Part shown: positions 2,824 through 18,201 of the stretch, in pieces
Numbering within the stretch: position 1 is the first letter of the stretch
Layout of the letters: every line of letters begins with the position of its first letter
NCBI GenBank assembly: GCA_027319565.1
Contig: DAHVNA010000001.1
Location: 114,716 to 178,715, forward strand
Direction: 5' to 3'
Source: Elusimicrobiota bacterium
GTDB lineage: Bacteria; Elusimicrobiota; Elusimicrobia; UBA1565; UBA9628
Length of the DNA stretch: 64,000 bases
Position numbers and translations under genes: made by a program
The notes under the pieces: generated by a model
What the model was told of the DNA's origin: nothing
Databases searched by the model: none
The model's input: the letters and a program-made list of their open reading frames with translations, nothing else

Positions 2824-5064
2824 ATGGCGCGCTCACGGCCTGTCGCGGAAACTTTGCCGGTTGGTCTTTCATGGCTGGATTTCCTTCAGCATTTTTTTCT
2901 GGTCTTAGCCTTTTTTGTCTCTCCGCTGATTTTTTTTACCAATCTTACTCGCAATCCCTATATCACGCAGATTTGCGCCCTCAATATCTCGATTTCCATC
3001 GTTCTCACTCTTTGGATGTTCCAAAATTACGGAGAGTTGCGAAAGATTAAGACGGTTCTTGATTTTCCGCTGCTCTTTTGGACCCTCATTATTTTCATCA
3101 GTTGGGGATACGCTTTTTTTAGGCACGTCAAATTTTACCGGCCCTCCGTTTTCAATGAAGGCCTTAACCATGAAATTTTTTGGGTGATCAACTGCCTGGG
3201 GGCTTTTTTTATCGGGGTTTCTTCGATCCGAAGTCAAGAGGAGGCCGATGAAGATGTCAACATCTGGGCGTGGGCGGGTTTTTGCGTTGTATGGGGGAGT
3301 TTGTGGTTTTTTTTCCCGTTGATGAGGAGTTCCAACTCGCCAGCCACCGACATCGCGGCCTTGGTCTGGAACGGTTACGGGGCTTTTCTCTGGGTGTTGG
3401 GAGTGGGATGTTGCGTTTACTTAAGCTTTAAAAGAAGAGCCATTGATTATCTCCATCTCGCTTTGGCCGCGGGGTTTTTGGCCTCGGCTTACGGCGTTCT
3501 TCAGTATTTTAATTTTGAGTTTATTTGGCCTCACGCGCTCAATCCTTATGGCGGACGCGCGGTTTCAACTTTTGGAAACCCCAACTTCCTTTCTTCCTAC
3601 AATGTCATCTTGCTTCCTTTTTGCGTGGTTTTATGGGCCCGAGCCAAGGGTGGGGCGCGTTATTGGTATGGCATCTGCGCGCTGACGCTTGAAGCCGGGC
3701 TTTTATGCAGCCTGACCCGCTCTTCTTGGCTTGGGGCTTTTGTGGCCGTGTCTTTCTTATTTTTTTCGAAAGGATTTATTCATATGCTCCGGAAAGAAAT
3801 ACGCCTATTTGGGCTTTTTTTTGGAGTGGGTTTTGCCGTTTTTGTCTTATGGCCGCATAGTCTTCTTTCGGCTGGATATCATCCCAGCGTTTTAGGGCGC
3901 TTGGAAGAAGTCGATACCTTGCTTAAGCCCGGACCGGTGAAGCAGGCCTATAGTCCTTGGCATCAAAGAGTGATGATTTGGACTTGCGCCTGGCTGATGG
4001 CCAAAGACAATCCCTTGACCGGGCAAGGTTTTGGGCTTTTTGAGTTGTTCTATCCGTTTTATCAAGGACCGGTTTTGCGGGCTACGCCTTTTTACTGGGA
4101 TTTAAGGACTCATGCCAACAATGCCCACAATGAGGCGCTGGAGGTTTTATCCCAGACAGGGATATTGGGGCTGGGGTTGTTTATTTGGGTCTGGGTGGTT
4201 TTTTTCCGTTTCGCGCGTGATTTTAGCGGTCAAGAAGAAGATTCCCTTAAAAATTTGTGGGTTTCCGCGGGCGCGGCGAGCGTTTTGGGCATGCTGGCTG
4301 ACAATCTCCTCAACGTGTCTCTTCATTTCGCGGTTCCGGCTTTTCTTTTTTGGTGGGTGGTGGGCTCTAGCGTTGGAAATGGGCGCGTTCACTTTTTGAA
4401 GGCGAGGGCGGAAAAAAATAAAAGAAATATTTGGGTTTTTCTCTCTGTTTTAGGCTTATGCGTGTGGATGATCGGGCGCTGGAGCTGCGTTTGGGAAAGA
4501 GAAGTCCATTATTTTTCCGGTTTTAAATTAGCTAGACAGGGAGATATGCCTGGCGCGATTAATCAGCTTGAGATTTCAAAACATTGGGGGCCGCCCGAGG
4601 TTAACGCGATTTACGAATTAGGCAACGCTTACGCGCGTTCCGGGTTTTTTAGAAGAGCTGAAAAAAACTATCAGGCGGCTCTTGATGCCAATGCGGGATA
4701 TGACGAAATTTTCTTTAACAAGGGGGCTATCGAGGCCAATCATCTCAATGACATCCTCGACGCGATTAATAATTTTCGCGTTTCGTGGTGGATTAACCCA
4801 CTTTTGAAAGACGTTTACAATAGCCTAGGCGCGCTTTATTTGCGAGATCCGCTTAAGTATCTCTCGCCGGCCTTGGATCTTCTCTCATATGGCGTCAAGG
4901 TATTCCCCCAAGACTCCGGGTTCTGGAATAATTTAGGCTATCTTCAAACCCTCAATAAAAATTATCCTGAAGCTGTCAGCGATTATCAAAGAGCTCTTCA
5001 GATTAACCCCAATTTGACCGCCGCGCGAAAGAATCTGGAAATTCTAACCCACTTTCGTCCCTAA
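2824..5064 (+). CDS. O-antigen ligase (Wzy_C)-like polytopic membrane protein with C-terminal TPR repeats. This is a candidate PglL/TfpO-type O-oligosaccharyltransferase.
   Basis: At least 10 TM helices. Wzy_C-like core LCSLTRSSWLGAFVAVSFLFF. C-terminal TPR-like units: IYELGNAYARSGFFRRAEKNYQAALDAN and NNLGYLQTLNKNYPEAVSDYQRALQINPN. Confidence 0.65.
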   Translation: MARSRPVAETLPVGLSWLDFLQHFFLVLAFFVSPLIFFTNLTRNPYITQICALNISISIVLTLWMFQNYGELRKIKTVLDFPLLFWTLIIFISWGYAFFRHVKFYRPSVFNEGLNHEIFWVINCLGAFFIGVSSIRSQEEADEDVNIWAWAGFCVVWGSLWFFFPLMRSSNSPATDIAALVWNGYGAFLWVLGVGCCVYLSFKRRAIDYLHLALAAGFLASAYGVLQYFNFEFIWPHALNPYGGRAVSTFGNPNFLSSYNVILLPFCVVLWARAKGGARYWYGICALTLEAGLLCSLTRSSWLGAFVAVSFLFFSKGFIHMLRKEIRLFGLFFGVGFAVFVLWPHSLLSAGYHPSVLGRLEEVDTLLKPGPVKQAYSPWHQRVMIWTCAWLMAKDNPLTGQGFGLFELFYPFYQGPVLRATPFYWDLRTHANNAHNEALEVLSQTGILGLGLFIWVWVVFFRFARDFSGQEEDSLKNLWVSAGAASVLGMLADNLLNVSLHFAVPAFLFWWVVGSSVGNGRVHFLKARAEKNKRNIWVFLSVLGLCVWMIGRWSCVWEREVHYFSGFKLARQGDMPGAINQLEISKHWGPPEVNAIYELGNAYARSGFFRRAEKNYQAALDANAGYDEIFFNKGAIEANHLNDILDAINNFRVSWWINPLLKDVYNSLGALYLRDPLKYLSPALDLLSYGVKVFPQDSGFWNNLGYLQTLNKNYPEAVSDYQRALQINPNLTAARKNLEILTHFRP

Positions 5065-5151: not shown

Positions 5152-6978
5152 ATGTTTAGAAGGAGGCAGAAGTTTTTTTGGAGCTTGATTATTGGCTCAC
5201 TTACCGTCGGTGCATGGGGGGGAATTATTGCTGGCCAAGAGCCGCCGCTGAGCCGCGATATGCAACTGGGAATTTTTTATTTCAAGAAGGGGGAGGATTC
5301 CGAGGCGATGGACCGCTTTATTGAAGTCCTTAATGGCGGAAACCCGACCGAGAGAACCCTTGCCAATAAGTATCTTAACCGTATTACTCGGCGCATGTCG
5401 GGGACAGAATCAAATCCACAAAAACCAGCTCAAAAAACGGAAGAGAAAACATCTTCTTCTTCATCCTCGGCTGTTCCCTCAAGCGCCGTAAAACCGGCTC
5501 CAAGTCCTACTCCATCCCAAGCTCAAGCCGCGCCAGCGTCTGTTGCGGCGCCGCATGAAGCGCCTGTAGCGTCCCCTCAAACACAAAAACAAAGCCCTGC
5601 GGTTGCTGTTTCCCCTACGGCTCAAGCCGCGCCACTGAGTCCTAGCGCCATTCAAGAACAAATCAAGGGGAAAATCCAAGCCTTGGCTGATTCCGGATTG
5701 AGGCGCTTGAAGCGCGTTCATCGTGTCGTTATTCTTCGTAAAAAAGATGAACGGCCGTTGGCGATTGCCTTGCCTTCGGATATTCTATTTGAAAAGCAAA
5801 TAGCGTTTAAAAACCGCGCCAATCAAATTATTTCCGATTTAGCCTCGGTCACTTACGGAGAAGGACAAGCGAAAATATTCATTTTCCCCCAAGGAGCCGC
5901 ATTGGGAGATGTGAAGGTCATGGATATGCGTCGGGCAGTGGCTCTCGCCGATTCCTTGGTGTCTCTGGGAATCGCTCCTAGCCGGGTTCAGGCGGAGCTT
6001 CTCACTGGAAGCTCATACCGCATTCCGAGTTCGCTTCTTTCATTTAAAGGGATTATCTTGGTTTTTGATTATCATTCGACTCTTGATCTTAAGGCGCCGC
6101 CGGACGAGTCCGGACCGCCCTTATCGATGGGGCTTTCTAGTCCGCGGTTCAGGGCTGATCAAGGCCAAGGCGTTTTGATCGAGTTCTCCGTTCAAAAACC
6201 GCATTCGGGGGTGAATTTCTGGAGATTTAAGATTTTGGGACCCGAGAACGCCAAAGCGAAGACAATTGAAGAAGTCGTGGGAAGCGGCCCGGTGTTTCAT
6301 CAGGTCTATTGGGACGGCAGGAAAAATTATTCCGGCTTTCATGAACCCTATGGTTTTTATGAGTGCCTTTTAACGGCGAAAGATGGCTCAGGGCGAACTC
6401 GGGCGATTCACCGTTGGGTTGAACTGGCCGGACCCGCTGGGGCGCAACACGCTTCAAGGAAAATTCCCGCGAAGGCATCCAAGGTAGTCAGCGCATCGAA
6501 GCGTTCTCATCTTAAGCCAGCGGGGAAGTCTTTTCACGGCAAAAAAGTTTCATATGTTCAATTGCGCGCGAGCCGCAGAAAGAAAATGAAGCGGAGTCTG
6601 CATGAAAAGAAAATAAAATCCCGAGCGAAAGGGCCTCGGATTGCAAGCGCGATTGTGTTTAAGACCAGTAGTTATCAATTGTCAAAAGCCATGAAAAGCA
6701 ATATCCTGAAACTTGCGCGTGACATGGCTAAAAATAAGAAAGTCCGATATGATATTATCGGTTATGCCAAGCCTGCGGAAAAAAATGCTAAAAACTTATG
6801 TCGGCAGCGGGCGCAGATAGTCGCCGGATTGCTCATCAACAAATATCGGATTAATTTTAAAAGGCTTAAAATCAGCGGGAAAGTGTCAAATTTAAAAGGT
6901 TCTCGTGTGCTGGTTTTAGCGCGAATAGCCGCAAAAAAGAGGAGAATTCAAAAGCGTGGACGAAAAGTTCATCGATGA
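5152..6978 (+). CDS. Envelope protein with an N-terminal TM/signal anchor, a Pro/Ala/Ser-rich linker, two OmpA-like peptidoglycan-binding domains and one FlgD-Ig-like domain.
   Basis: N-terminal TM/signal FFWSLIIGSLTVGAWGGIIAG, then a P/A/S-rich linker. OmpA-like segments: ANQIISDLASVTYGEGQAKIFIFPQGAALGDVKVMDMRRAVALADSLVSLGIAPSRV and NLCRQRAQIVAGLLINKYRINFKRLKISGKV. FlgD-Ig-like segment: GPVFHQVYWDGRKNYSGFHEPYGFYECLLTAKDGSGR. Confidence 0.5.
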   Translation: MFRRRQKFFWSLIIGSLTVGAWGGIIAGQEPPLSRDMQLGIFYFKKGEDSEAMDRFIEVLNGGNPTERTLANKYLNRITRRMSGTESNPQKPAQKTEEKTSSSSSSAVPSSAVKPAPSPTPSQAQAAPASVAAPHEAPVASPQTQKQSPAVAVSPTAQAAPLSPSAIQEQIKGKIQALADSGLRRLKRVHRVVILRKKDERPLAIALPSDILFEKQIAFKNRANQIISDLASVTYGEGQAKIFIFPQGAALGDVKVMDMRRAVALADSLVSLGIAPSRVQAELLTGSSYRIPSSLLSFKGIILVFDYHSTLDLKAPPDESGPPLSMGLSSPRFRADQGQGVLIEFSVQKPHSGVNFWRFKILGPENAKAKTIEEVVGSGPVFHQVYWDGRKNYSGFHEPYGFYECLLTAKDGSGRTRAIHRWVELAGPAGAQHASRKIPAKASKVVSASKRSHLKPAGKSFHGKKVSYVQLRASRRKKMKRSLHEKKIKSRAKGPRIASAIVFKTSSYQLSKAMKSNILKLARDMAKNKKVRYDIIGYAKPAEKNAKNLCRQRAQIVAGLLINKYRINFKRLKISGKVSNLKGSRVLVLARIAAKKRRIQKRGRKVHR

Positions 6979-8581
6979 ATGGGCCTTTGGGATAAAGGCT
7001 CCCAAGGTTTCTCAAAATCTGGGCATTTACCTAAGCCCAAGCGTGGCCTATATTGCCCAATCCCATCTCAACAAAGGCCGTTTGGTTTTAGATCAGCTTT
7101 TTCGCGTGGCCCTTCCTAAACCTAAAGTCGTGGCTCCGCCTAAGGAAGCTTCTCAAATGCCGGGAGTGGAGTTGTGGGGAGATTTTAACGATATTTTGGA
7201 CGTTTTGCGCCCCTCTATAGGCAAACTGGTCAATGCGCCAAAGGAGGTCGTGGTTTCTCTCTCTCCGGAACTCAGTCTCCTTCGTTATTTTCAGATGCCT
7301 CAAATTGAGCAAAGATTTTGGAAAACGGCAATTCCTTTGGAGGCAAAAAAACATATTCCTTTCGCCTTTCAAGGCCTTACCAGCGATTTTCAGGTTTTTC
7401 CTTCTGCGGTTTCAACCCCGGAGGGAAAAACGATGCAGGGGGTCTTGTTCGCCGTCACGTCTAAATCGACCTGGGAAGGCGTTAGAGATTTAATGAAGGG
7501 GTTGAAATTAGAGATGGTGGCCATGGAGACCAGCGTCAACTCTTATTTGAGATTTCTGCTGTCCATGGATAAAGGGATTGCGGATCCTGCTTGCCTTTGG
7601 GTCCATTTTTCCGATGTGAAGGTTCGCATTGTCGGATTTGCAAAAGGAATTCCGCTTTTGTTTAGAGAAGCTGATTGGTATCCCAATGGTGATCTAAGGA
7701 CGCTAGGACTTCCCAGCCTGGTTGATTTTATCAGCCATAAATTAAATTTGGGGTCCGTGCAAAAGTGCTTAGTTAGCGGCGCAGCCAATGAGTCTATCAT
7801 TGCGGGGCTTTCCCAGGAGATAAATCTGAGAGGGGAACCCAAAAACCCTGGACTTCCATTAGGGCTTAAGGGCGGAGATTTTGAGTCTTATGCCGCCATT
7901 GGCGGTTCTTTCCGTTTTACCGCTCCTTCTCCCGCCAATATCGATTTTTCCGCGGCAATGAAGGTGACTGATGGCGAGAGAAAAGCGGCGATGTTTGTTT
8001 TTGGGGCTTCAGTTGTTGTCGCCGTACTTTTTATCGTTTTAGGCTTGTTCTCAGGTGTCCAAGTTTTCATGCAATCACGGGAACTTTCAGGAATTAAAAG
8101 AGACCCGCATGTCGAGGCCCTCTTTCGCGGAAAATCCCAGGGGGATATACAAAAGATGATCTCTAAAATAGAAAAAGAAACGGCTTTTTTAGGCGGCGCC
8201 AGTAATAAAAAAAATGACCCTTCTGTTTTCCTTGAGGATATCGCTGCTTCCATTCCCGAAAACCTTTGGCTGACCGATATAAAACTGGATAATCCCTTAC
8301 CACGGCCAGGGCGCAACATAGGGCAGGGTATGACACTAAAATTATCTGGATATTCCACGGCCGATTCGCGGATGGGGGAAGAAGAAGACGCCAAAAACTT
8401 TAAAGAAGCTCTTGAGGAATTGCCTGATTTTAAAAGATTTTCCGTTCAGATACAATTGCAGAAAGGGCAAAGCCAAAGCATGTTTGGGGGTCTCAATAAA
8501 GACCCGTATGAAGCGGAGCGGCAGCGCGAGAAAAGAACGGGTTTTGATATTACCATTCAGCCGCGATACGATTTAAATTAA
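6956..8581 (+). CDS. pilM: Type IV pilus assembly PilM (actin-like ATPase fold) fused to a PilN-like TM + periplasmic segment.
   Basis: PilM-like N-terminus GIYLSPSVAYIAQ. A single TM at the C-terminal third (MFVFGASVVVAVLFIVLGLFSGVQVF) is followed by a PilN-like periplasmic region (ENLWLTDIKLDN...MTLKLSGYS). Position immediately upstream of the pilO/pilP/pilQ homologues. Confidence 0.6.
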   Translation: MDEKFIDEWAFGIKAPKVSQNLGIYLSPSVAYIAQSHLNKGRLVLDQLFRVALPKPKVVAPPKEASQMPGVELWGDFNDILDVLRPSIGKLVNAPKEVVVSLSPELSLLRYFQMPQIEQRFWKTAIPLEAKKHIPFAFQGLTSDFQVFPSAVSTPEGKTMQGVLFAVTSKSTWEGVRDLMKGLKLEMVAMETSVNSYLRFLLSMDKGIADPACLWVHFSDVKVRIVGFAKGIPLLFREADWYPNGDLRTLGLPSLVDFISHKLNLGSVQKCLVSGAANESIIAGLSQEINLRGEPKNPGLPLGLKGGDFESYAAIGGSFRFTAPSPANIDFSAAMKVTDGERKAAMFVFGASVVVAVLFIVLGLFSGVQVFMQSRELSGIKRDPHVEALFRGKSQGDIQKMISKIEKETAFLGGASNKKNDPSVFLEDIAASIPENLWLTDIKLDNPLPRPGRNIGQGMTLKLSGYSTADSRMGEEEDAKNFKEALEELPDFKRFSVQIQLQKGQSQSMFGGLNKDPYEAERQREKRTGFDITIQPRYDLN

Positions 8582-8585
8582 TTTT

Positions 8586-9175
8586 ATGGCTATGGATATT
8601 AAGGATATCAATAGAAAAATTCGCCATTTGCAGCGAGATTTTGGCGATACTATTTTTGTTCTCCAAAATAAGGGACTTAAGTATTTCCAACGCGTTTGGT
8701 TGGCGGCGCTTCTCATTTGTTTGTACCCTATAAATTCTTTTATCAATCGATGGATAGTAGAATTTCGTCATTAGAGATGAGAATTAAGACAGCCCGGGCC
8801 ACTAATAAATATGCCAAGACCTATAACGATGCCATGGAAAATCTTCTCGTCGTTGAGCGCCGCCTTCCTCCGGCAAGCAAGGGGACCGGGTGGTTAAGCG
8901 ATATTTCTATTTCTTCTCTCAAAGACGAAAACATTACTCCTGATTCAGTCTCTTCCGTCCATCAAGTTCAAAGCGGAAAACTTATTAAGGAAAGCATCTC
9001 GGTCGATTTTCAAGCGAAATTCCCTGAAATTTTTTCGTGGCTTTATAAGATTGAACACGATCATTATCTGATTCATGTTGACTCTCTGCAGATAAAAAAG
9101 AAAGGGCTCGATGAAAACAAAGTTCATTGCACTCTTTCTACTTTGATTCAGGCTGGATCCGGAGGTAATTCCTAA
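8586..9175 (+). CDS. PilO-like inner-membrane pilus assembly protein, apparently split by a frameshift. A TM-bearing ORF (8586..8774) is followed by a coiled-coil periplasmic ORF (8696..9175).
   Basis: ORF 8586..8774 encodes a short cytoplasmic segment plus a TM (RVWLAALLICLYPINSFI). The overlapping +2 frame continues from about 8750 with MDSRISSLEMRIKTARATNKYAKTYNDAMENLL... for roughly 140 aa. Position between pilMN and pilP. The frames switch near the homopolymeric tcttttatcaatcg around 8738-8752. Confidence 0.35.
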
Positions 9176-9177
9176 AC

Positions 9178-9894
9178 ATGGCTAAAAAGAGTCCTGCGGG
9201 CTGGGTGGTTCTTATGCTTGTTTTAGCCCTTCCGGGACTTGCTTTTTATTTTTGGTGGAATCATTTGGGCGGCAATCATAATGTCACTCAAAAACTCGCG
9301 AAAACACAGCCTTTTTCTCGTGTTTTTAACGCCTCTCCCCCTGGCACTAAGGTCTCAATTCCACGATTTTCTAGCGCTCCGATGGCGCCTGCTTCAAGCC
9401 CTCAAGCCTCGCCGAAATCTCCGGTGGTCGCAAAAACAATGCCCGCAGCTCTTGCCCGACCCGGCGTTTCTACGCCTTCCTCTGTTTCATTGGTCAACGC
9501 AGGAAAGCCGCTTACTACCTCTTCGGTTTCAGCCATGGCTTTAAAACCCGTAGCGCAAAATGGCCAGAAATTAGCGGTTCCAACTTTGAAAAGAGACCCC
9601 ACTCTCTCTCCGACGGACCGACAGGAAATTTATGATTTGCTTCACCCGAAGCCTAAACCCAAGATTGTGCGCCGGAGGATTAAAAAGAAAAAGGGCCCTC
9701 CTATTGAAAGTTTGATTGATTTGTCAGGAATCATTTTTATGTCTCCATCGAATGCCAAGGCGATTATTAATGGAAATCTTATGAAGGTGGGGCAAATGGT
9801 GCATGGGGCTAAGATTATTGAGATCGAAAAACAAAAAGTTATTTTCTCTTATCATGGGCGAAAGGTAATCAAGGTGATGAGCGGTAAACTTTGA
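9178..9894 (+). CDS. PilP/GspC-like pilus assembly protein: TM anchor, Pro/Ser/Ala-rich linker and a C-terminal beta domain.
   Basis: TM anchor VVLMLVLALPGLAFYFWW. Low-complexity P/S/A linker. C-terminal IIFMSPSNAKAIINGNLMKVGQMVHGAKIIEIEKQKVIFSYHGRKVIKVM resembles the PilP/GspC HR domain. Located directly upstream of the secretin. Confidence 0.5.
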   Translation: MAKKSPAGWVVLMLVLALPGLAFYFWWNHLGGNHNVTQKLAKTQPFSRVFNASPPGTKVSIPRFSSAPMAPASSPQASPKSPVVAKTMPAALARPGVSTPSSVSLVNAGKPLTTSSVSAMALKPVAQNGQKLAVPTLKRDPTLSPTDRQEIYDLLHPKPKPKIVRRRIKKKKGPPIESLIDLSGIIFMSPSNAKAIINGNLMKVGQMVHGAKIIEIEKQKVIFSYHGRKVIKVMSGKL

Positions 9895-9904
9895 GGAGAC
9901 TATT

Positions 9905-11893
9905 ATGAAGATTAATGGGTGGGGTTTTAAAGGTCTTGCGTGGGGAAAAAGTTTGTGGCGCGCTCTTTGCCTTTTATCAGCCTTGGAATTGGCCCTTTTG
10001 CCTGGGTTGACGGCCCTAGCCCAATCCGACAGCTCAACTCCCGAGGCCAATCCGCAGTTCCAAAATTCCGTGCAAAGTCCTAAAAGCGATTCCGGCTCTC
10101 CAGTGGGAAGCGTTTCCGCCGTTAAAGCCCATGCCGCGTCGGCTTCTAAAGCCCTCGAGCAGGCAAGTTCCCCTTCTCAAGCGGGCGCGTCTCCGTCAGG
10201 AATTCAAATCGGCGCTTCCAGTTCTCCAACGCCCCCGCGTAAGAAAAGAGCCCCATCCCCTTTGGACACACGCGTTTCGATTCGAGTCAAGGGCGCGCCA
10301 TTGGCGACTTTTTTAGATGCCATTTCCGCTCAGGCCAGGATTAATTTCTTAATCACCGAGGGCCTTGAGTCAGTTAAAATGACCGCCTTTTTGCAAAAGG
10401 TGACGGTTCGAGAAGCCTTGCAGATCCTTCTTGAAATTAAAGGCTTAACCTATCGGCAGATTGGCAAAAGTAATACCTATGTCATTAAAAAACGTTCCAA
10501 AAATGCTCCCAACTTTATCACGCGGATTTATTCTCTTTCCTACATACCCTTGGTCAATATCTCTCAACAAGGAACCCAAGGTCAACAAGGAGGAGCGGCA
10601 GGCGGCGCGGCGGGCGGCATGGCGGCAATGCTCGGCGGAATGGGGGGGCCGTCTGCGGGAGGAAGTTCTGGCGGCGGCGCGCCGGGAGGAGCTGGCGGTT
10701 CTGGCGGAGGGTTGGCGCCAGGTCAGGGTGGGCAGGCTTTAGGAATGGGATCCATGATGGGAGGCGCTGGCGTGGGTGGACAGCAAGGCGGCATGCCGGG
10801 AGCGGGAACCGGGGGCGTGAGCTCTATTGTGACCGTGGTCCAATCGGTTTTAACCAAGGCCGGCCGAGTGGCTGTGGATCCTCGAACCAACTCTTTAATC
10901 GTAACCGATGTGCCGGAGGTCTTTCCCCAGGTGGATCAACTGATTGCCGAACTTGACAAAAAAGTTCCCCAGATCATGATTGAGGCCCAGATTGTGGAAA
11001 TTGATTCCAATCGCGCCAATGATCTCGGTTTTGAGTGGGGCGGGCCAAACGGCGAAATGGGGACTTTTACCGGTGGCCAGCGCGATACGTCTTTTCCAAT
11101 GGTTTTGACCGGAGCCAGCGGCCAGCCGCGCTTTTTTGATCCGGTTCAAAACGTCATGAGCACCTTGGCCCTTGAAGGCGGCGGCATGATGGGGGGCAGT
11201 AGCGGCGGCATGGGCGGCGGCATGGGCACGACCTTGGGCGGAATTGGATCCACTGGCGGAACCTTGGCTATTCCCACGACACAGCCGGGAATCAATCCTC
11301 TGACCGGGCTTCCTATGCTGGGGTCTAGCGTCATGACCAGCGTCTTGAACTTAAGCCAGCTGACGATTACCTTACGCATGCTGGTCTCTCGCTCGGAAGC
11401 GCGCTATTTGGGAAAGCCCAAAATCTTAACCGTCAATAATACTCCGGCGACGATTTCTATCACTGGAAACACCGCAATTTACATGTCGCAGCAGACCACC
11501 GGCGGGACCATGGGAATTACCCAGGCGACCTATTCTCCTGTGACTGCAAATACTGGCCTTACTTTGACCGTGACTCCTCAAGTCAACGGCGATGGATATA
11601 TTACGATGGCGGTCAATCCTCAGTTTACCGATGTGCAACCAGCGGTCATTTCAAGCGCGGCCAATCCTGTTTATGACACTCTGGTTCGACGTGCGCAAAC
11701 CCTAGTGCGCGTCAAAAATGGAGAGACCTTGGTTCTTGGAGGGCTTTTGCATTCAACCGAACAGAAAACCGTGCGCAAGGTTCCGTTTTTGGGATATATT
11801 CCCGTCATCGGATGGCTTTTTACCAGCGTCCAAGCCCAGCGCAAGAACACGGATCTGGTCATCTTTATAACGCCGACCATCATTAACGATTGA
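9905..11893 (+). CDS. pilQ: Secretin (PilQ/GspD family) with long Gly-rich low-complexity inserts.
   Basis: Signal peptide. N0-like ITEGLESVKMTAFLQKVTVREALQILLEIKGLTYRQIG. Secretin_N: RVAVDPRTNSLIVTDVPEVFPQVDQLIAELDKKVPQIMIEAQIVEI. Secretin C domain: LVRVKNGETLVLGGLLHSTEQKTVRKVPFLGYIPVIGWLF...DLVIFITPTII. Gly-rich inserts at about aa 218-300 and 420-455. Confidence 0.85.
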   Translation: MKINGWGFKGLAWGKSLWRALCLLSALELALLPGLTALAQSDSSTPEANPQFQNSVQSPKSDSGSPVGSVSAVKAHAASASKALEQASSPSQAGASPSGIQIGASSSPTPPRKKRAPSPLDTRVSIRVKGAPLATFLDAISAQARINFLITEGLESVKMTAFLQKVTVREALQILLEIKGLTYRQIGKSNTYVIKKRSKNAPNFITRIYSLSYIPLVNISQQGTQGQQGGAAGGAAGGMAAMLGGMGGPSAGGSSGGGAPGGAGGSGGGLAPGQGGQALGMGSMMGGAGVGGQQGGMPGAGTGGVSSIVTVVQSVLTKAGRVAVDPRTNSLIVTDVPEVFPQVDQLIAELDKKVPQIMIEAQIVEIDSNRANDLGFEWGGPNGEMGTFTGGQRDTSFPMVLTGASGQPRFFDPVQNVMSTLALEGGGMMGGSSGGMGGGMGTTLGGIGSTGGTLAIPTTQPGINPLTGLPMLGSSVMTSVLNLSQLTITLRMLVSRSEARYLGKPKILTVNNTPATISITGNTAIYMSQQTTGGTMGITQATYSPVTANTGLTLTVTPQVNGDGYITMAVNPQFTDVQPAVISSAANPVYDTLVRRAQTLVRVKNGETLVLGGLLHSTEQKTVRKVPFLGYIPVIGWLFTSVQAQRKNTDLVIFITPTIIND

Positions 11894-11948: not shown

Positions 11949-13703
11949 ATGCCTGACAAAGCCTTCTTGGCGGATATGATGGTTTCTTCCGGTTCGCTGA
12001 CGGCGGAACAAAAAGAGAAAGCTCTCAAGGCTTCTCAAGAAGCTAGGTGCAGCTTTGAAGAGGCGGTCATTAAACTTGGTTTCGCTTCCGAAAGCGTGGT
12101 CACTGCGGCTTTGTCAAGGCAATTAGGCATTCCCCTCGCTTCGCGGGAAAATAAGATTTTAATCCCGGAAAAAGGCCAGGGGCTTGAGAAATTGATTCCT
12201 GAAAATTTCGCTCGAGATCATCTGGTCGTTCCCCTATTTCTTGAAGATGGCACCCTGGGCGTTGCGATGGCAGATCCTACCAATGTGATGCTTCAAGATA
12301 ATATTCGGGTCTTGAGTTCCAAAACCATTCATCCCTTTGTGGCGGCAAAAACTCAAATTTTAAAGTCCATTGACGAGCTTTATGGCGGAAATCTTGGAGG
12401 CAGTCTCGTTGATCGTACGCTGGAAGAGGGTAAAAAAAGCGGCGGGGTTAGCGCTGAAGAATCCGACTCTGCGGATGTGCGCGTGGATCTCGACAAGGCT
12501 ATTTCTGGTTCAAAAGACGCCCAGATTATTTCTCTTATCAACGCCATTTTAAAACAGGCCGTCAATGAGAGATGTTCCGATATTCATTTGGAAAGTTTTG
12601 ACAACCGCGCGAGTTTGCGCTTCCGCATCGACGGGATTTTGTATGAGAGAAGCTCTCCTCCCAAAGCGATATTCGCGTCCTTGGTTTCGAGGATCAAAAT
12701 TCTCTCGAAACTTGATATCGCGGAGCGCCGTCTGCCTCAAGATGGAACCTTTTCAATTAAACTTCAAAACCGCAATATCGATCTGCGGGTTTCCATTTGC
12801 CCGACGGTTTACGGAGAAAAGGTCGTCATGCGTATTTTAGATAAGGGCGCGGTTAATCTTGACGTAGATAAAATCGGCTTTGAGCCAAAACAGAAAGCGG
12901 ATTTTTTGGATGCGGCCAAACAGCCCCATGGCCTGATATTTCTCACCGGTCCCACGGGGTCCGGAAAAACCACCACCCTTTATTCCGTCTTAAATACCAT
13001 TAAAACGCCGGAGCTTAATTTTATGACTATTGAGGATCCGGTTGAAATTAAGCTCGACGGTCTCAATCAAGTTCAGGTTCGCTCCGATATCGGGCTTACT
13101 TTTGCCGCGGCCTTGCGTTCTTTTTTACGCCAAGATCCGGATGTGATTTTAGTCGGAGAGGTTCGAGATCAGGAAACCGCCCAGACCTGCTTAAGGGCGG
13201 CCTTAACCGGACACCTGGTTCTTTCGACTCTTCACACTAACGACGCGATGTCAACAGTCGTGCGTTTAATTGATCTGGGAATCGAGCCGTTTTTGCTTTC
13301 CGGAAGTCTTCTTTTGGCGGCGGCTCAGCGCTTGGTTCGCATTCTTTGTCCCCATTGCAAAAAGCCTTATAAACCGGACCCCGCTCAATTGGAGGCTTGC
13401 ATCAAGGAATCCATGTTGCCGCAGGCTCAAATTCCGAATCCGGCCAATATCGTTTTTTACAGAGAGCATGGCTGCGATAAATGTTCTCAAACCGGTTATA
13501 TGGGCCGACGGGCGATCTATGAAATTTACCGTATTATTCCGGAGATGAGAGAAATTATCTACAAATACGGCGGCGATTTGGCCCGGCTTCGAGAGGTGGC
13601 GGTCAAAAGCGGCATGTGGGATTTAAGGGCGAGCGGTTGGAGAAAGGTTTTGTCCGGGTTGACGACTTCTGAAGAGGTGCTCTCGGTGACGATGAAGGAA
13701 TAG
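11949..13703 (+). CDS. pilB: Type IV pilus / T2SS assembly ATPase (PilB/GspE family).
   Basis: T2SSE_N domain (LADMMVSSGSLTAEQKEKALKASQEARCSFEEAVIKLGFASESVV). Walker A GPTGSGKTTT. Asp box LVGEVRD. His box. Tetracysteine CPHCK...CDKC. Confidence 0.85.
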   Translation: MPDKAFLADMMVSSGSLTAEQKEKALKASQEARCSFEEAVIKLGFASESVVTAALSRQLGIPLASRENKILIPEKGQGLEKLIPENFARDHLVVPLFLEDGTLGVAMADPTNVMLQDNIRVLSSKTIHPFVAAKTQILKSIDELYGGNLGGSLVDRTLEEGKKSGGVSAEESDSADVRVDLDKAISGSKDAQIISLINAILKQAVNERCSDIHLESFDNRASLRFRIDGILYERSSPPKAIFASLVSRIKILSKLDIAERRLPQDGTFSIKLQNRNIDLRVSICPTVYGEKVVMRILDKGAVNLDVDKIGFEPKQKADFLDAAKQPHGLIFLTGPTGSGKTTTLYSVLNTIKTPELNFMTIEDPVEIKLDGLNQVQVRSDIGLTFAAALRSFLRQDPDVILVGEVRDQETAQTCLRAALTGHLVLSTLHTNDAMSTVVRLIDLGIEPFLLSGSLLLAAAQRLVRILCPHCKKPYKPDPAQLEACIKESMLPQAQIPNPANIVFYREHGCDKCSQTGYMGRRAIYEIYRIIPEMREIIYKYGGDLARLREVAVKSGMWDLRASGWRKVLSGLTTSEEVLSVTMKE

Positions 13704-13711
13704 GAGGCCTT

Positions 13712-14935
13712 ATGTCTCAATTTTCATATGTCGTTCAAGACGCTAGGGGCGAGGCCATTTCTGGGACCCTTGAAGCGGGAGATGAAAACGAAGCGGTGGC
13801 GGCCCTTCAATCAAAGGGCTATTTTATTTTGTCATTGTCTTCTAAAGACACAAAGACGACCAGCCGACAAGGCGCATCTTCCAAATCGCCCAAGGTCGCC
13901 CAGCAGGATCTTATTTTCTTTTCTGAACAATTGTCGACGCTTTTAACCGGTGGCGTTCCTTTAGTTCGAGCTTTGTCCTTGCTTGGAGAACATACCAACT
14001 CCCCGGGGCTTCACGCGGTGGTGGGAGCGGTGACCCAAGACGTGTCCCGCGGAACGGCGCTTTATAAGGCTCTGGCGAAACATCCCGCCATTTTCGATAC
14101 CTTGTGGGTTTCCCTGGTTCAAGCGGGAGAAATGGGAGGACAACTCCCCAAGGTTTTGCGGCAAATCGCCAATTATTTGACGGCTCAAGCGGAATTAAGA
14201 GGAAAAATCATCACGGCTTTGGCTTATCCCGCGGTTCTGGCTTGTATGTCGGGAGGGGTTCTCGCTTTTTTCGTCATCCATATCGTCCCGGTTTTTGCCG
14301 ATATTTTTAAGCAATTTCACATTAAACTCCCGATGCTCACCCAAATGGTTGTTTCCACTTCGGAACTCATCGTTCATCACTTAGGCCTGATTATTTTTGT
14401 CGTGGTGGGGGGATACATGGCGTGGAAATCGTATACTTCCACCGATGCCGGCAAAATTGCCAAATGGAATCTGATATTTGGAATTCCTTTTTTTGGCGAC
14501 TTCATCAAACACATTATGGTCGAAAGACTCTTGACTACTCTTTCGACTTTAATTGAAAGCGGCGTCAGTATTCTTAATGCGATTGCGGTTTTAGAAGGCG
14601 TTTTTTCATCCAATATTATTTTCCAGACGGCTCTGAGCGCGATTAAGGTGGACGTGGCGGCGGGAAAATCAATATCGGCGGCCTTTAGAAAATCGGGGGT
14701 TTTGCCTTCCTTGGTAACCGAGATGATGTTCATGGGGGAAGAATCGGGCAAGTTGCCGGATATGCTTCAGACCATGTCCGGGTTTTACAGGCTTCAAATT
14801 GATCAGTTTACTCGCAGATTCACCGCCATTATAGACCCGATACTGGTGGTCGGAATCGGCGGACTTGTCGGCGTTATTGTTTTAGCGGTCTTTATGCCAA
14901 TCTTTAAAATGTCGACGATGGGAGGAGGACATTGA
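13712..14935 (+). CDS. pilC: Type IV pilus / T2SS inner-membrane platform protein (PilC/GspF family).
   Basis: Two T2SSF repeats (FSEQLSTLLTGGVPLVRALSLL and LTTLSTLIESGVSILNAIAVL). Three TM segments. Directly follows the ATPase gene. Confidence 0.85.
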   Translation: MSQFSYVVQDARGEAISGTLEAGDENEAVAALQSKGYFILSLSSKDTKTTSRQGASSKSPKVAQQDLIFFSEQLSTLLTGGVPLVRALSLLGEHTNSPGLHAVVGAVTQDVSRGTALYKALAKHPAIFDTLWVSLVQAGEMGGQLPKVLRQIANYLTAQAELRGKIITALAYPAVLACMSGGVLAFFVIHIVPVFADIFKQFHIKLPMLTQMVVSTSELIVHHLGLIIFVVVGGYMAWKSYTSTDAGKIAKWNLIFGIPFFGDFIKHIMVERLLTTLSTLIESGVSILNAIAVLEGVFSSNIIFQTALSAIKVDVAAGKSISAAFRKSGVLPSLVTEMMFMGEESGKLPDMLQTMSGFYRLQIDQFTRRFTAIIDPILVVGIGGLVGVIVLAVFMPIFKMSTMGGGH

Positions 14936-15546
14936 TGAACGGAGAGGAGAAGAAAGTAAAAGAGAGTAACGGAGAGTCACGGAAAGTAGAAGAAAGTTAC
15001 GGAAAGCGACAGAAGCAACGGAAACAGCCTTTTTCCGTTTCTTTCCGTTTCTTTCCGTTTCTTTCCGTTCCGTTTGGTTTTACGCTCATAGAGCTTTTAG
15101 TGGTGATTTTGATTGTCGGAATATTGGCGGCTATTGGATATCCTTCCTACATCCGTTCGATGGAAACCAGCAAGGCCAACGACGCCGTGGGGTATTTGAC
15201 CATGGCTGGGAACGCCGATCGGATGTACGCCGTGGATCATAATGGGATATATGTTGCAGCGGGACAAATTACTGATTCCTGTGATAATGGGGCTACTTGT
15301 CCTCAGAACAATGCCTGCGACTTGGTCTATTGCGGCTATATGCCGGCGGACAATTACAGTGAAAAGCCCTACAGTATTACCATTAATGCTTACGCTCCGC
15401 CTCCATCAGCGCTGGTGACGGTTCAGCGTTGTACAGGTTCTTCTCCTTGTACAAATTCTTCTCCTTACACCGGTTGGGGATATAATATTGATGCCAATGG
15501 AAATGTCACGCCATTTGGTAATCAGACGCCGCCGCCGCCACAATAA
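14935..15546 (+). CDS. Type IV pilin/pseudopilin (probable major subunit) with an exceptionally long charged leader of about 48 aa before the prepilin cleavage site.
   Basis: The ATG overlaps the pilC stop (ttgATGA). Class III signal ...SVPFG|FTLIELLVVILIVGILAAIGYPSY, with Gly at -1 and Glu at +5. The C-terminal domain is Cys-rich with a Ser/Thr/Pro-rich tail (GSSPCTNSSPYTGWGY...TPPPPQ). The leader is encoded by inverted and tandem repeat DNA. Confidence 0.75.
   Translation: MNGEEKKVKESNGESRKVEESYGKRQKQRKQPFSVSFRFFPFLSVPFGFTLIELLVVILIVGILAAIGYPSYIRSMETSKANDAVGYLTMAGNADRMYAVDHNGIYVAAGQITDSCDNGATCPQNNACDLVYCGYMPADNYSEKPYSITINAYAPPPSALVTVQRCTGSSPCTNSSPYTGWGYNIDANGNVTPFGNQTPPPPQ
14966..15075 (+). 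repeat. Inverted repeat with a tandem arm inside the pilin leader-coding region. ACGGAAAG-type units at 14966-15028 face (CTTTCCGTTT)x4 at 15031-15070.
   Basis: Direct reading: gtaacggagag / tcacggaaag / ttacggaaag / caacggaaacag, then cc, then ttttccgttt ctttccgttt ctttccgttt ctttccgttc cgttt. The two arms are reverse complements, so the segment can fold as a long RNA/DNA hairpin. Confidence 0.7.
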
Positions 15547-15561
15547 GAAAGAAGAAAGCAA

Positions 15562-16131
15562 ATGAAAGAAACGGGCGCGACGCTTATTGAGGTTTTAGCC
15601 TCCGTTCTCATAGCGGCGGTGATGACTTCCGCTGTTTTCAGCGTGACCTTGGGGGCCAAGGTACAATCAAAAATTACGGAAGAACACAATGCGGCGTCTG
15701 AGTGCGTGACCCAGCTGACCAATGAACTTCACTCTTTCGTCACCGGTTATTGGGATTACAATACGAATACTTTCAATTCCAATATGACGGAAATCTGCGG
15801 CCCCGCTGATTCGTCTTGTTACCCGGGAACAAGTGGGGGGAATTCCTCTCAATGGACTTGGGCAGATCTGGGAGTAACGGATAACTGCGGGAGCGGCTGT
15901 TACGTTTTAGCTACCGGAACTCACGTCCTTTCAGTTGGGCCCAATGGCTTGACGGCTTTGGGCCAACCCTTTTGTCTTCCTCCCTGGATGTGGCAGCCGC
16001 CTTATAATCCTAGTGGAAATCAGCTCTTGTCCTATACCGTTTCGGCTCCACCGATCGTCTCCGGTCAACAAGTGGGAGGGCCAGGGGTTCAAGTGACGGT
16101 GAATTGGTATAACATCAATGGGTCCCAATGA
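15562..16131 (+). CDS. Minor pilin/pseudopilin (prepilin-type N-terminus).
   Basis: MKETG|ATLIEVLASVLIAAVMTSAVF has the class III signal with Glu at +5. Size and position match the minor-pilin block. Confidence 0.7.
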   Translation: MKETGATLIEVLASVLIAAVMTSAVFSVTLGAKVQSKITEEHNAASECVTQLTNELHSFVTGYWDYNTNTFNSNMTEICGPADSSCYPGTSGGNSSQWTWADLGVTDNCGSGCYVLATGTHVLSVGPNGLTALGQPFCLPPWMWQPPYNPSGNQLLSYTVSAPPIVSGQQVGGPGVQVTVNWYNINGSQ

Positions 16132-16802
16132 ATAAAAATTTTATCGGAGTTTCGATGAGAAATGGCGGATTTACCTTGGTCGAAATGATTGTCGCTCTTC
16201 TTTTAAGCTCTCTTGTCATGGTGGGCTTGATTGATATTACCGCTAGCATCATCGCCCAGCATTTTGAGGGAATTCGTAGAGGAAGAGTAGACAGTGAGAC
16301 CCTTTATTCTCTCGATCAGATGAGGCTGGAGCTTGAAGCCGCGACCTATTACTCTTATCCCAATACGTCAAGCCCGGCTACCATGTCCATTCAGGGCTGC
16401 GGAAATTATTTTTCAGCGACAAGCCCTGGTACGCAAATTTACACGGGGCCCGGCGCAACAATAAGTTCTTTTGCCTATTGCCTTGAGAACAAGTGTACAG
16501 GGAGTAATTCCAATTTGTGCGATCCATCGGGTTATACGGGGCCCTATGATTTAATTCGCTATTATAATCCCAATGGTTGTCCTATTTCGTGCGGAGGAGG
16601 GACGCCTCAGACCTTGGTTTATCAGAATGTCTATTTAGAACCAATATCATTAAATCCTTCGGGCCAGCCTTTTGTCTTGAACCGGCCGCTCGGCGGGGTC
16701 GATGTGCATATGATTATAGGCTATCCTGTTTTGGCGGGAGAAACCCCCACCTATTATCAAATTGATACAACCTATATTCCGGATACGGGGCGCATGCAGT
16801 GA
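16128..16802 (+). CDS. Minor pilin/pseudopilin (PilW/GspJ-like).
   Basis: MRNGG|FTLVEMIVALLLSSLVMVGL prepilin motif. Start overlaps the upstream stop (ATGA). Confidence 0.7.
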   Translation: MNKNFIGVSMRNGGFTLVEMIVALLLSSLVMVGLIDITASIIAQHFEGIRRGRVDSETLYSLDQMRLELEAATYYSYPNTSSPATMSIQGCGNYFSATSPGTQIYTGPGATISSFAYCLENKCTGSNSNLCDPSGYTGPYDLIRYYNPNGCPISCGGGTPQTLVYQNVYLEPISLNPSGQPFVLNRPLGGVDVHMIIGYPVLAGETPTYYQIDTTYIPDTGRMQ

Positions 16803-17233
16803 TTAAAAATTCCAGAGGGCAGATTTTAACCAGCACCTTGGTGACCGCCATGGTGGTAGTCCTCATCGCGGCCGGGCTCATGCATTTAATCTTGATGAGG
16901 TATACCGCCGCTAATAGAGCGACGATGGAGGTTAAATACACCCGCTGCGTTCAACTGGCCGTGGGTCAATTTTTTTCTACCTGGGACAGGCTTAGTTCAA
17001 CTGCGGGGGTCACCGATCCTGTTTGCAGTAGCGCGTCGCCACTGTTTACCTGTGCTGGGTCAAACCATGGACATTGCCATTGTACCTGTACATTTAACAG
17101 TGGATCCTTATCCGGCCTCACGGTGAAGGTGAAACCTGGTACAAATGGTGCAAACCCTCCTTGCACTTTTGAGGCTCAGACTACAACGAATACGTCCTCG
17201 CCCTTTGCCTCGGTTACCCCCGTTTGCCAGTGA
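16799..17233 (+). CDS. GspK/PilX-like pseudopilin lacking Glu+5.
   Basis: N-terminus SRGQILTSTLVTAMVVVLIAAGLMHLILM resembles the GspK-type hydrophobic segment, with no Glu at +5. The product is short (144 aa) and Cys-rich. It is the last gene of the pilin block. Confidence 0.45.
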   Translation: MIKNSRGQILTSTLVTAMVVVLIAAGLMHLILMRYTAANRATMEVKYTRCVQLAVGQFFSTWDRLSSTAGVTDPVCSSASPLFTCAGSNHGHCHCTCTFNSGSLSGLTVKVKPGTNGANPPCTFEAQTTTNTSSPFASVTPVCQ

Positions 17234-18201
17234 AACGCCTAATTGTTACCGCCGACGATTTTGGGGCGAGTTCTTTTGTCAACGAGGCGGTCATCCGCGC
17301 TTTTAAAGAAGGCATTTTGCGCTTTGCAAGCTTGATTGTTGACGCGCCCGCGGCCGAAGAAGCGGCGAAATTGGCTAAAGAAAACCCTGGCCTTGGCGTC
17401 GGGCTTCATTTGGACTTGTGCCATGAATTTGGAAGCGATTCTTGCTTTCCTCGTCATTCCGGCGAAAGCCGGAATCCAGACTTTCGCGCGGAGCTAGACT
17501 CCGGCTTACAAATTGCCGGAGTGACGAATCGAGCGGTTTGGGCCAATTCTCCAGCTCTTTGGGGCTTACGGTATTTTTTTTCTCCATATTGGAGAAAACG
17601 GATCGCTTCAGAAATTTCCCGGCAACTAGAGAAGTTTCTCTCGCTTGGAATTAATCCTACGCATGCGGACGGGCACACTAATATCCATATCCACCCCGTT
17701 ATTTTCCCCGCCCTTTTGCGGGCCTGCCAAAAATACGGAATTTCCAGGATCAGGGTTCCCGCCGGAGAGTACGATTTGGGCCGGCGCTATTTAAAGAAAA
17801 TTCCGTTTCTAAACAAGGTAGAATACGCGGCGTTTGGAGCGCTTGGCCCCTATCTCAAAAAACAAGCCAAGAAAATCGCGCCTCAAATCGAGATACTTCC
17901 CCGCTGTTTTGGACTTTTGCGCTCAGGGCGCATGAGGGAAGACTATGTTCTAAGGCTTTTAGAAAATCTGCCCGAGGGAGACAGCGAAATTTATTTTCAT
18001 CCCTCGCTGGATCCAAAAAGCCGAGTGTTCGGAGATTCTCCGACAAAGACCCATCAGACCATAACGGAATTTGAAACCTTGACTAGTCCGCGGATTTTAG
18101 AAGCTCTGGGGCGTTTGGATATCGCGTTGTTTTCGCCCGGTGGCTTAGATAAATCAAAAAGCCAAACGAAGACCACAAAATCTCCCGAATATGGCGGATA
18201 A
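17224..18201 (+). CDS. hpnK: ChbG/YdjC-family carbohydrate deacetylase, HpnK-like. It carries an in-frame REP-like insertion of about 25 aa.
   Basis: YdjC signature RLIVTADDFGASSFVNEAVIRAFKEGILRFASLIVDAP...GVGLHLDL. It sits next to hpnL, hpnI and hpnJ-like genes. The segment CFPRHSGESRNPDFRAELDSGLQIAGVT is encoded by the palindromic element at 17452-17526. Confidence 0.6.
   Translation: MPVKRLIVTADDFGASSFVNEAVIRAFKEGILRFASLIVDAPAAEEAAKLAKENPGLGVGLHLDLCHEFGSDSCFPRHSGESRNPDFRAELDSGLQIAGVTNRAVWANSPALWGLRYFFSPYWRKRIASEISRQLEKFLSLGINPTHADGHTNIHIHPVIFPALLRACQKYGISRIRVPAGEYDLGRRYLKKIPFLNKVEYAAFGALGPYLKKQAKKIAPQIEILPRCFGLLRSGRMREDYVLRLLENLPEGDSEIYFHPSLDPKSRVFGDSPTKTHQTITEFETLTSPRILEALGRLDIALFSPGGLDKSKSQTKTTKSPEYGG
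17452..17526 (+). repeat. REP/MITE-like double-hairpin palindromic element, copy 1, in frame inside the hpnK CDS.
   Basis: CGTCATTCCGGC-GAAA-GCCGGAATCCAG ...21 nt... ACTCCGGC-TTACAAATT-GCCGGAGTGACG. These are two perfect 8-bp stems, and the element ends are themselves inverted (CGTCA...TGACG). Confidence 0.7.

Follow-up and report, generated by a model that had tools for sequence, protein, structure and literature searches.

The class III leader peptides of pilins are removed on the cytoplasmic side and have been described as hydrophilic or neutral (PMC4471445, PMC10191384). Published leader lengths are 6-26 residues, with about 15-30 residues in type IVb pilins (PMC4471445, PMC10191384). It has been reported that type IVb pilins such as TcpA, CofA and LngA, the pilin Flp1 and the major pilins of the Streptococcus sanguinis type IVa pilus (T4aP) carry leaders that far exceed the 5-7 residues typical of type IVa pilins and type II secretion system (T2SS) pseudopilins, end in Gly and are followed by a hydrophobic helix with Glu5 (PMC4471445, PMC10191384). 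In this study, we analyzed a 64-kb stretch of DNA from an uncultured Elusimicrobiota bacterium (hereafter the window) and found a prepilin gene that shares these properties. The long-leader pilins described so far have leaders of 15-30 residues that are hydrophilic or neutral, free of repeats and present throughout their families, whereas the leader of the window pilin has 48 residues, is one-third hydrophobic, is encoded by a block of 10-nucleotide (10-nt) repeats and is absent from close orthologues.

Repeats and palindromes within coding sequence have precedents. In the opa genes of Neisseria, CTCTT pentamer repeats lie in the region coding for the leader peptide, and phase variation occurs by slipped-strand mispairing (PMC3960869). 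The window block resembles the opa tract as a pyrimidine-rich tandem whose unit is not a multiple of three, which lies in the signal or leader codons of a surface-structure gene, encodes hydrophobic residues and shifts the frame when the unit number changes. It differs in having about four copies of a 10-nt unit, in being paired with an inverted degenerate purine array, in encoding a class III instead of a Sec leader and in showing no copy-number polymorphism in the sequences seen. The Rickettsia palindromic elements (RPEs) and the QMITEs of Coxiella, cited in PMC5896051, are protein-coding palindromic elements. They are like the block in being self-complementary, in frame, free of stops and tolerated at a permissive site; RPEs and miniature inverted-repeat transposable elements (MITEs) are dispersed and multi-copy, whereas the block is single-copy in the window, comes from the start region of a neighbouring gene and lies in a segment predicted to be removed from the mature protein. 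Coding simple-sequence repeats in leaders and in-frame palindromes are thus both known kinds of sequence, and the leader length and the clear origin of the repeat are what is unusual here.

The window holds a co-directional cluster of the type IV filament or T2SS kind, as determined from the open reading frame (ORF) list and Pfam, in which a secretin, a T2SSE ATPase, a T2SSF platform protein and a further N_methyl protein lie together (Table 1). Like the T2SS and T4aP-like clusters (gspD-E-F-G-H-I-J), it has a secretin, an ATPase and a platform protein ahead of one major and several minor (pseudo)pilins and shows translational coupling; it differs from them in that the window cluster includes no prepilin peptidase gene. 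The pilin ORF spans 14932 (TTG) or 14935 (ATG) to 15546, and the gene at 14935-15546 is the operon's first prepilin and probably its major pilin. The last base of the pilC stop (TGA, 14933-14935) is also the first base of the pilin ATG (14935-14937), and GGAGGA lies 5 nt upstream, in agreement with the translational coupling proposed in the original prediction for this locus. The class III signal described there was also confirmed by the ORF, the sequence and N_methyl. Gly48, the Gly-1 residue (codon 15076-15078), stands before FTLIELLVVILIVGILAAIGY, a hydrophobic helix with Glu+5, and Pfam N_methyl covers pilin residues 49-70 (E=8e-6). Measured from the ATG and counting Gly-1, the leader has 48 residues.

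We examined whether translation could begin closer to the cleavage site. No in-frame ATG, GTG or TTG and no near-cognate start codon was found between 14938 and 15076, and the other two forward frames are closed across the leader. A non-canonical start after the hairpin, which had been suggested, was therefore ruled out; the TTG at 15074 belongs to another frame and reaches a stop after 5 codons. Since no nearer in-frame start exists and the other frames are closed, a functional pilin needs all 48 codons translated from the coupled ATG at 14935. Translational bypass of the T4 gene 60 type was ruled out because there is no stop after the take-off codon and no matching take-off and landing codons. 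An antisense ORF over the leader was likewise ruled out by stops in all three reverse frames.

The leader was then compared with those of related pilins, whose genomes are annotated as Elusimicrobia or Elusimicrobiota metagenome-assembled genomes (MAGs). Leaders of 3-6 residues (MKG, MRARG, MSARSG, MNARSG or MNVRSG) were seen in orthologues whose mature pilins share 76-83% identity with that of the window, and in seven orthologous loci these short leaders begin at the same coupled ATG, behind the same Shine-Dalgarno sequence. Five orthologues agree in all of the first 25 residues counted from Gly-1. The ratio of nonsynonymous to synonymous substitution (dN/dS) of the mature pilin to its relatives is 0.05-0.16, and its dN is not an outlier. 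Against the two closest relatives, loci L021 and L022 (88-90% nucleotide identity in pilB and pilC), the blastn alignment ends at 14941 (ATGAACG) and resumes at 15076. The window thus carries 134 nt in place of 8 nt, a net insertion of 126 nt or 42 codons. The called leader had a median of 14 residues among 121 pilin matches, and leaders of more than 24 residues occurred only in the window protein, its single-nucleotide polymorphism (SNP) variant and P0009. As a second long leader, the 55 residues called for P0009 are only partly comparable, because internal in-frame ATGs with Shine-Dalgarno sequences are present and the real leader may have 18-32 residues. The possibility that long leaders are normal in this lineage, which the original prediction had named as a refutation, was not borne out. 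These sequence comparisons indicate that the long leader is lineage-specific and abnormal for its lineage.

The insertion consists of two opposed arms. Tandem Repeats Finder reported a period of 10, 3.8 copies and 100% matches at 15032-15069; in the register first proposed, (CTTTCCGTTT)x4, one mismatch falls at either outer end. The proposed order of units followed by their reverse complement in four tandem copies is therefore correct, with 3.8 perfect copies and a mismatch at the outer ends. The left arm is a degenerate array with 10/20-nt periodicity (14938-15024). Complementarity between the arms is 73-76% over 34-38 nt, and the best ungapped Watson-Crick match between them is 32/47, compared with 25.7 +/- 1.5 and a maximum of 31 in 500 arm-wise shuffles. 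One 10-nt unit (AAAGAAACGG / CCGTTTCTTT) makes up the block, in about nine direct copies that are degenerate and about 4.5 inverted ones that are near-perfect. Within the window the repeat is confined to the leader block, with 3 overlapping matches against 0.04 expected. The segment encoded by the purine arm is rich in Lys, Arg and Glu and that encoded by the pyrimidine arm in Phe, Ser, Leu and Pro; leader residues 1-31 are charged (10 K/R and 6 D/E) and residues 32-47 are hydrophobic (mean Kyte-Doolittle +1.08). At 48 residues, with its last third hydrophobic, the leader is not of the short hydrophilic or neutral kind.

We determined where the unit comes from. The first 10 nt after the ATG of minor pilin 1, the next gene in the operon, read AAAGAAACGG, and the tandem unit CCGTTTCTTT is exactly their reverse complement. 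The 25-mer at 15550-15574 matches the left arm (14948-14972) at 21/25, and its reverse complement matches the tandem arm at 19/25, twice. When both strands of the window were searched, only the block, the source itself and one chance site matched this 25-mer at 18/25 or better. Since the units of the block match the start region of minor pilin 1, the block is of local origin. That the unit is a copy of this start region in both orientations, and that it recurs in sister species, had been overlooked in the original prediction.

The recurrence concerns minor pilin 1 itself. A search of all retrieved loci with two tandem units matched L021 just 3' of its major pilin, and in each expanded leader of the sister species a pyrimidine-rich segment comes after 2.7-5.7 tandem AAAGAAACGG-type units (Table 1). 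An alignment of the window block with the L021 block runs through the hairpin apex and has a local score of 40, compared with 19.6 +/- 3.2 and a maximum of 31 for half-wise shuffles. These alignments indicate that the block belongs to a small family of leader expansions in the clade. Its source could be a transfer from an already expanded minor-pilin leader or an independent rise from the same seed.

Two observations on the same repeats were made in other sequences. At locus L038, whose DNA is identical to that of a full-length locus, the Joint Genome Institute (JGI) call of minor pilin 1 (929-1429) starts 39 codons late, and a spurious 70-residue antisense ORF (766-978, minus strand) is called over the repeat-encoded leader. 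Such leaders mislead gene callers, and could mislead pilin predictors that assume short leaders. Short GGAAAGAAAC and TTTCCGTTTC tandems also lie on two unrelated IMG/VR viral contigs (L034, 3502-3569; L033, 5564-5583), where they are apparently non-coding; they are probably independent simple repeats.

We consider it probable that the block is a lineage-specific in-frame expansion of the leader, produced by slippage and template switching and tolerated because the leader is discarded. Replication slippage together with an intra-operon template switch or gene conversion would build the block, and the homologous signal-peptide codons of the two pilin genes would assist both slippage and switching. 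Prepilin peptidase would cut after Gly48, with the leader staying in the cytoplasm. Because the leader would be discarded, extra residues would be tolerated for as long as the frame stays open, and the expansion would be close to neutral. We regard the RNA hairpin and the frame-shifting potential as by-products of this architecture, not as demonstrated functions.

Several points weigh against this explanation. The hydrophobic last 16 residues are at odds with the hydrophilic or neutral leaders of the reviews, and processing could be impaired. No Peptidase_A24 match was found among the 50 window ORFs scanned. Selection for a function such as dosage control or switching could account equally well for the four perfect tandem copies and for the recurrence in several lineages. 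In addition, all contigs of the species are essentially one clone, which limits what they say about neutrality and stability over time. If the leader is processed, the substrate tolerance of prepilin peptidase extends well past the 6-30 residues described, and the class III leader would be an evolutionary "free zone" for repeats and palindromes in an operon without intergenic space. Recurrent expansion from one 10-nt seed is, for its part, a clean natural example of coding repeats born from a neighbour's translation-initiation region.

Other hairpin-rich insertions were noted in related loci and in the window. At L020 (about 4495-4600), a terminator-like hairpin (AAAAAGGGGACTGTCCCTTTTTTT) lies directly after the major pilin stop, and a second copy lies within the 19-residue leader codons of minor pilin 1 (MNELGGRRKKGLSLFFCEG, then STLIE); the segment 4480-4620 with both copies folds at -48.3 kcal/mol (z -2.1). 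L016, from a more distant relative whose pilins show about 50-54% identity, has two tandem major-pilin paralogues (3001-3630 and 3654-4247), both of which follow long hairpin-rich N-terminal extensions (CCTTCTCCCCTTGGAGGAGAAGG, CCCTCTCCCCTCAAGGGAGAGGG) from the same coupled ATG. The L016 insertion is unrelated to the window block, and internal ATGs may shorten the real leader. Its twin contig L015 has a 100-N scaffold gap at the extension site (2901-3000). In the window, about 40 residues (HEFGSDSCFPRHSGESRNPDFRAELDSGLQIAGVTNRAVWA) are inserted in frame in ydjC, at 17422-17545, and six orthologues are without them. The inserted DNA contains hairpins like those of repetitive extragenic palindromic (REP) elements or MITEs, namely CATTCCGGCGAAAGCCGGAATCCAG at 17455-17479 and then TCCGGCTTACAAATTGCCGGA, and is single-copy in the window. 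Taken together, the sequences suggest that tolerant coding sites of a compact operon may take up such insertions, the cleaved leader being the most permissive. Self-complementary sequence seems to survive only in permissive coding segments of the packed operon.

We confirmed that the block is present in other assemblies. The exact 203-residue protein is present on 11 contigs. Five loci were read and were 100% identical to the window over 1.1-6.6 kb, namely GCA_027406935.1 and GCA_021796015.1 (NCBI MAGs) and the Logan assemblies ERR3200794, ERR3200804 and SRR13170412, each from its own sequencing run. Over 14.5 kb, a further ENA assembly, ERZ27237422, showed 2 SNPs against the window. The SNP 15056 C>A (Pro>Gln; L032 position 4037) falls inside the perfect tandem and could reflect a mutational hotspot or a sequencing error in the repeat. 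The same DNA thus came from six or more independent samples or assemblies, which rules out an assembly artefact, a possibility that the original prediction had listed among its refutations. All contigs of the species represent essentially one clone, and within the species the block is stable.

The original prediction also proposed a phase-variable tract. In this explanation, slippage by 10 nt would alternately silence and restore the major pilin, in the manner of the CTCTT repeats of Neisseria opa. The geometry fits, since the tandem lies in frame and perfect in leader codons, as in Opa (PMC3960869), and 10 is not a multiple of 3, so that the gain or loss of a unit shifts the frame. When units were added or removed in silico, a change of one or two units ended the product at 48-105 residues, and a change of three units kept the frame. 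The homologous array has about 2.7, 4.7 and 5.7 units among the sister species, and one of the two SNPs in 14.5 kb lies in the array. However, there are only about four copies of a long unit. No length polymorphism was found among 12 contigs from at least six samples or assemblies, a comparison of limited power given that these are one clone and consensus assemblies. No 100%-identical shortened or frameshifted pilin was found in a collection of 5.8 billion protein clusters, and in the protein clusters of the sister species the leader length is constant within each cluster. Consensus assemblies hide minority variants, which makes this evidence weak in both directions. P0135 was considered as a frameshifted, phase-off variant and was ruled out, because it departs from the full-length locus in the start call alone, the DNA being identical. 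We therefore hold phase variation to be possible but unlikely. Measurable slippage would instead make the tract a phase-variable switch of the pilin, and this in an uncultured environmental phylum.

The hairpin could instead act as a cis-regulatory RNA that throttles translation, attenuates or terminates transcription between pilC and the pilin gene, or shields the downstream pilin mRNA once the transcript has been processed, and so sets the dosage of the pilin. The original prediction of a long self-complementary hairpin was right in that the region folds, with a minimum free energy of -52.8 kcal/mol for 14920-15100 and -48.6 kcal/mol for the block alone, from the second codon to the cleavage-site codon. 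The terminator-like scan picked out the apex hairpin, and the 3' arm is followed by a U-rich stretch. Unrelated hairpins occupy the equivalent place in the L016 major pilin and the L020 minor pilin 1, each more stable than its shuffles by about 2 standard deviations. However, the stability of the window hairpin is only about 2 standard deviations beyond that of shuffled sequences (z -2.07 against dinucleotide shuffles, 7/200 as good). Arm-wise shuffles gave -39.7 +/- 4.4 kcal/mol, against which the block has a z of -2.0 (15/500 as good). The stability is mostly due to composition, because a purine tract precedes a pyrimidine tract and the two pair well whatever the order of their bases. The predicted mean unpaired probabilities, 0.50 (Shine-Dalgarno sequence) and 0.38 (ATG), fall among the values for relatives that have no such block. 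The block is missing from seven orthologous major-pilin loci, so that the hairpin is not conserved among them, and in L021 and L022 the folds of the homologous blocks are no more stable than those of shuffled sequences (z -0.35 and -0.2). Rfam at gathering thresholds gave 0 matches in the whole window. All copies are one clone, which leaves no covariation, and a terminator before the most abundant subunit would make little sense. A regulatory or attenuating role, as first proposed, is therefore improbable.

A selected function might also reside in the repeats themselves. The slippage-prone 10-nt repeats would then be a device that grows, shrinks and moves between the leaders of major and minor pilins to switch or tune single subunits of one type IV filament machine reversibly, with the discarded leader as a safe carrier of the switch and of its RNA hairpin. 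The switched subunits may be the major pilin in the window species and minor pilin 1 in its sisters. We consider this rather improbable.

The long leader might alternatively be a damaging lesion, in which the 16 hydrophobic residues misplace the cleavage site in the membrane, the prepilin is processed poorly or not at all, and the gene is a nascent pseudogene or encodes a dominant-negative subunit. The leader does break the hydrophilic or neutral rule in residues 32-47, and its 48 residues lie beyond the published 6-26 and 15-30. However, the frame has been kept open although two of three frames are closed, and the operon is otherwise intact. The mature part shows no excess of dN, and the sister species have kept charged-then-hydrophobic leaders of 18-34 residues across speciation events. 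We judge a lesion very improbable. Scarcely credible is a mobile palindromic element of the MITE, REP or RPE type inserted in frame, or an assembly artefact: in-frame palindromes are known in Rickettsia and Coxiella (PMC5896051), and ydjC in the same window has a REP-like in-frame insertion, but the block is unique in the window, no terminal inverted repeats or target-site duplication were seen, its units match the neighbour's start region, the sister species have expansions in situ, a metagenome scan of JGI contigs with the 22-nt apex sequence gave only two unrelated genes encoding GMETAFFRF, and the sequence is identical in independent assemblies.

Table 1. Features of the pilus gene cluster, the leader block and the minor-pilin-1 leaders of related loci. 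Coordinates refer to the window unless a locus is named.
Feature	Coordinates	Strand	Basis or remark
PilM/N-like gene	6956-8581		cluster member
T2SSM/B-like genes	8696-9894		cluster members
Secretin (GspD/PilQ-like)	9905..11893	+	Pfam Secretin 3e-42, Secretin_N 1.5e-11
Assembly ATPase (GspE/PilB-like)	11949..13703	+	Pfam T2SSE 1.4e-133, MshEN 2.2e-16
Platform protein (GspF/PilC-like)	13712..14935	+	Pfam T2SSF 6.3e-55
Shine-Dalgarno-like GGAGGA, 5 nt 5' of pilin ATG	14923..14929	+	kept in orthologues
Prepilin gene, 203 residues from ATG	14935..15546	+	ORF list; Pfam N_methyl; orthologues
Leader-coding segment, 48 codons (MNGEEKKVKESNGESRKVEESYGKRQKQRKQPFSVSFRFFPFLSVPFG)	14935..15078	+	only this frame open
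Purine-rich arm, 82% purine, about 9 degenerate 10-nt units (NACGGARAGT alternating with AGAAGAAAGT)	14938..15027	+	
Apex hairpin of the inverted repeat (AACGGAAACAGCCTTTTTCCGTT)	15017..15039	+	inverted repeat I8, 87% complementary; terminator-like scan
Pyrimidine-rich arm, 89% pyrimidine, encoding hydrophobic PFSVSFRFFPFLSVPF	15030..15075	+	
Perfect tandem (TTTCCGTTTC)x3.8; unit is the reverse complement of AAAGAAACGG	15032..15069	+	Tandem Repeats Finder
Gly-1 codon, then hydrophobic helix FTLIELLVVILIVGILAAIGY (Glu+5); predicted prepilin-peptidase site	15076..15141	+	sequence; N_methyl
Probable repeat source: ribosome-binding site, ATG and first 10 nt of minor pilin 1 (AGAAGAAAGCAAATGAAAGAAACGG)	15550..15574	+	sequence matching
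Minor pilin 1 (leader MKETG, then ATLIEV)	15562..16131	+	ORF list, related loci
Minor pilin 2 (leader MNKNFIGVSMRNGG, then FTLVEM)	16128..16802	+	Pfam N_methyl 2e-6
Minor pilin 3-like gene (VIKNSRG, then QILTSTLV)	16799..17233	+	ORF, motif; position conserved in all related loci
ydjC	17224-18201		last listed gene of cluster
Minor-pilin-1 leader, window, L019, L023			MKETG, encoded ATG-AAAGAAACGG-G; 5 residues; ancestral state
Minor-pilin-1 leader, L022	4492-4545		MKETERNRKRLSITLNRG; 18 residues
Minor-pilin-1 leader, L035	1501-1584		MKGTERNRKRRKAKESGGKRLSVTPSKG; 28 residues
Minor-pilin-1 leader, L021 / L037	4496-4600 / 555-656		M(E/K)(E/G)TER(N/K)RKRRKETENKSFALRLSPFLSVTSN(A/V)G; 34 residues

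Further observations were made on other genes of the window. The leader of minor pilin 2, MNKNFIGVSMRNGG, has 14 residues, compared with 6 (MKARSG-type) in five relatives, and contains no obvious repeat. The secretin has two long Gly/Ala/Ser/Met-rich low-complexity stretches (10560-10790 and 11146-11380) between its N-terminal and Secretin domains, and a (GGCGGCGGCATG)x4.2 tandem lies within the second of these, at 11177-11227. Outside the cluster, a 688-residue protein encoded at 31909-33975, directly 3' of two histidine-kinase genes, combines ankyrin repeats with a caspase-like Peptidase_C14 domain.

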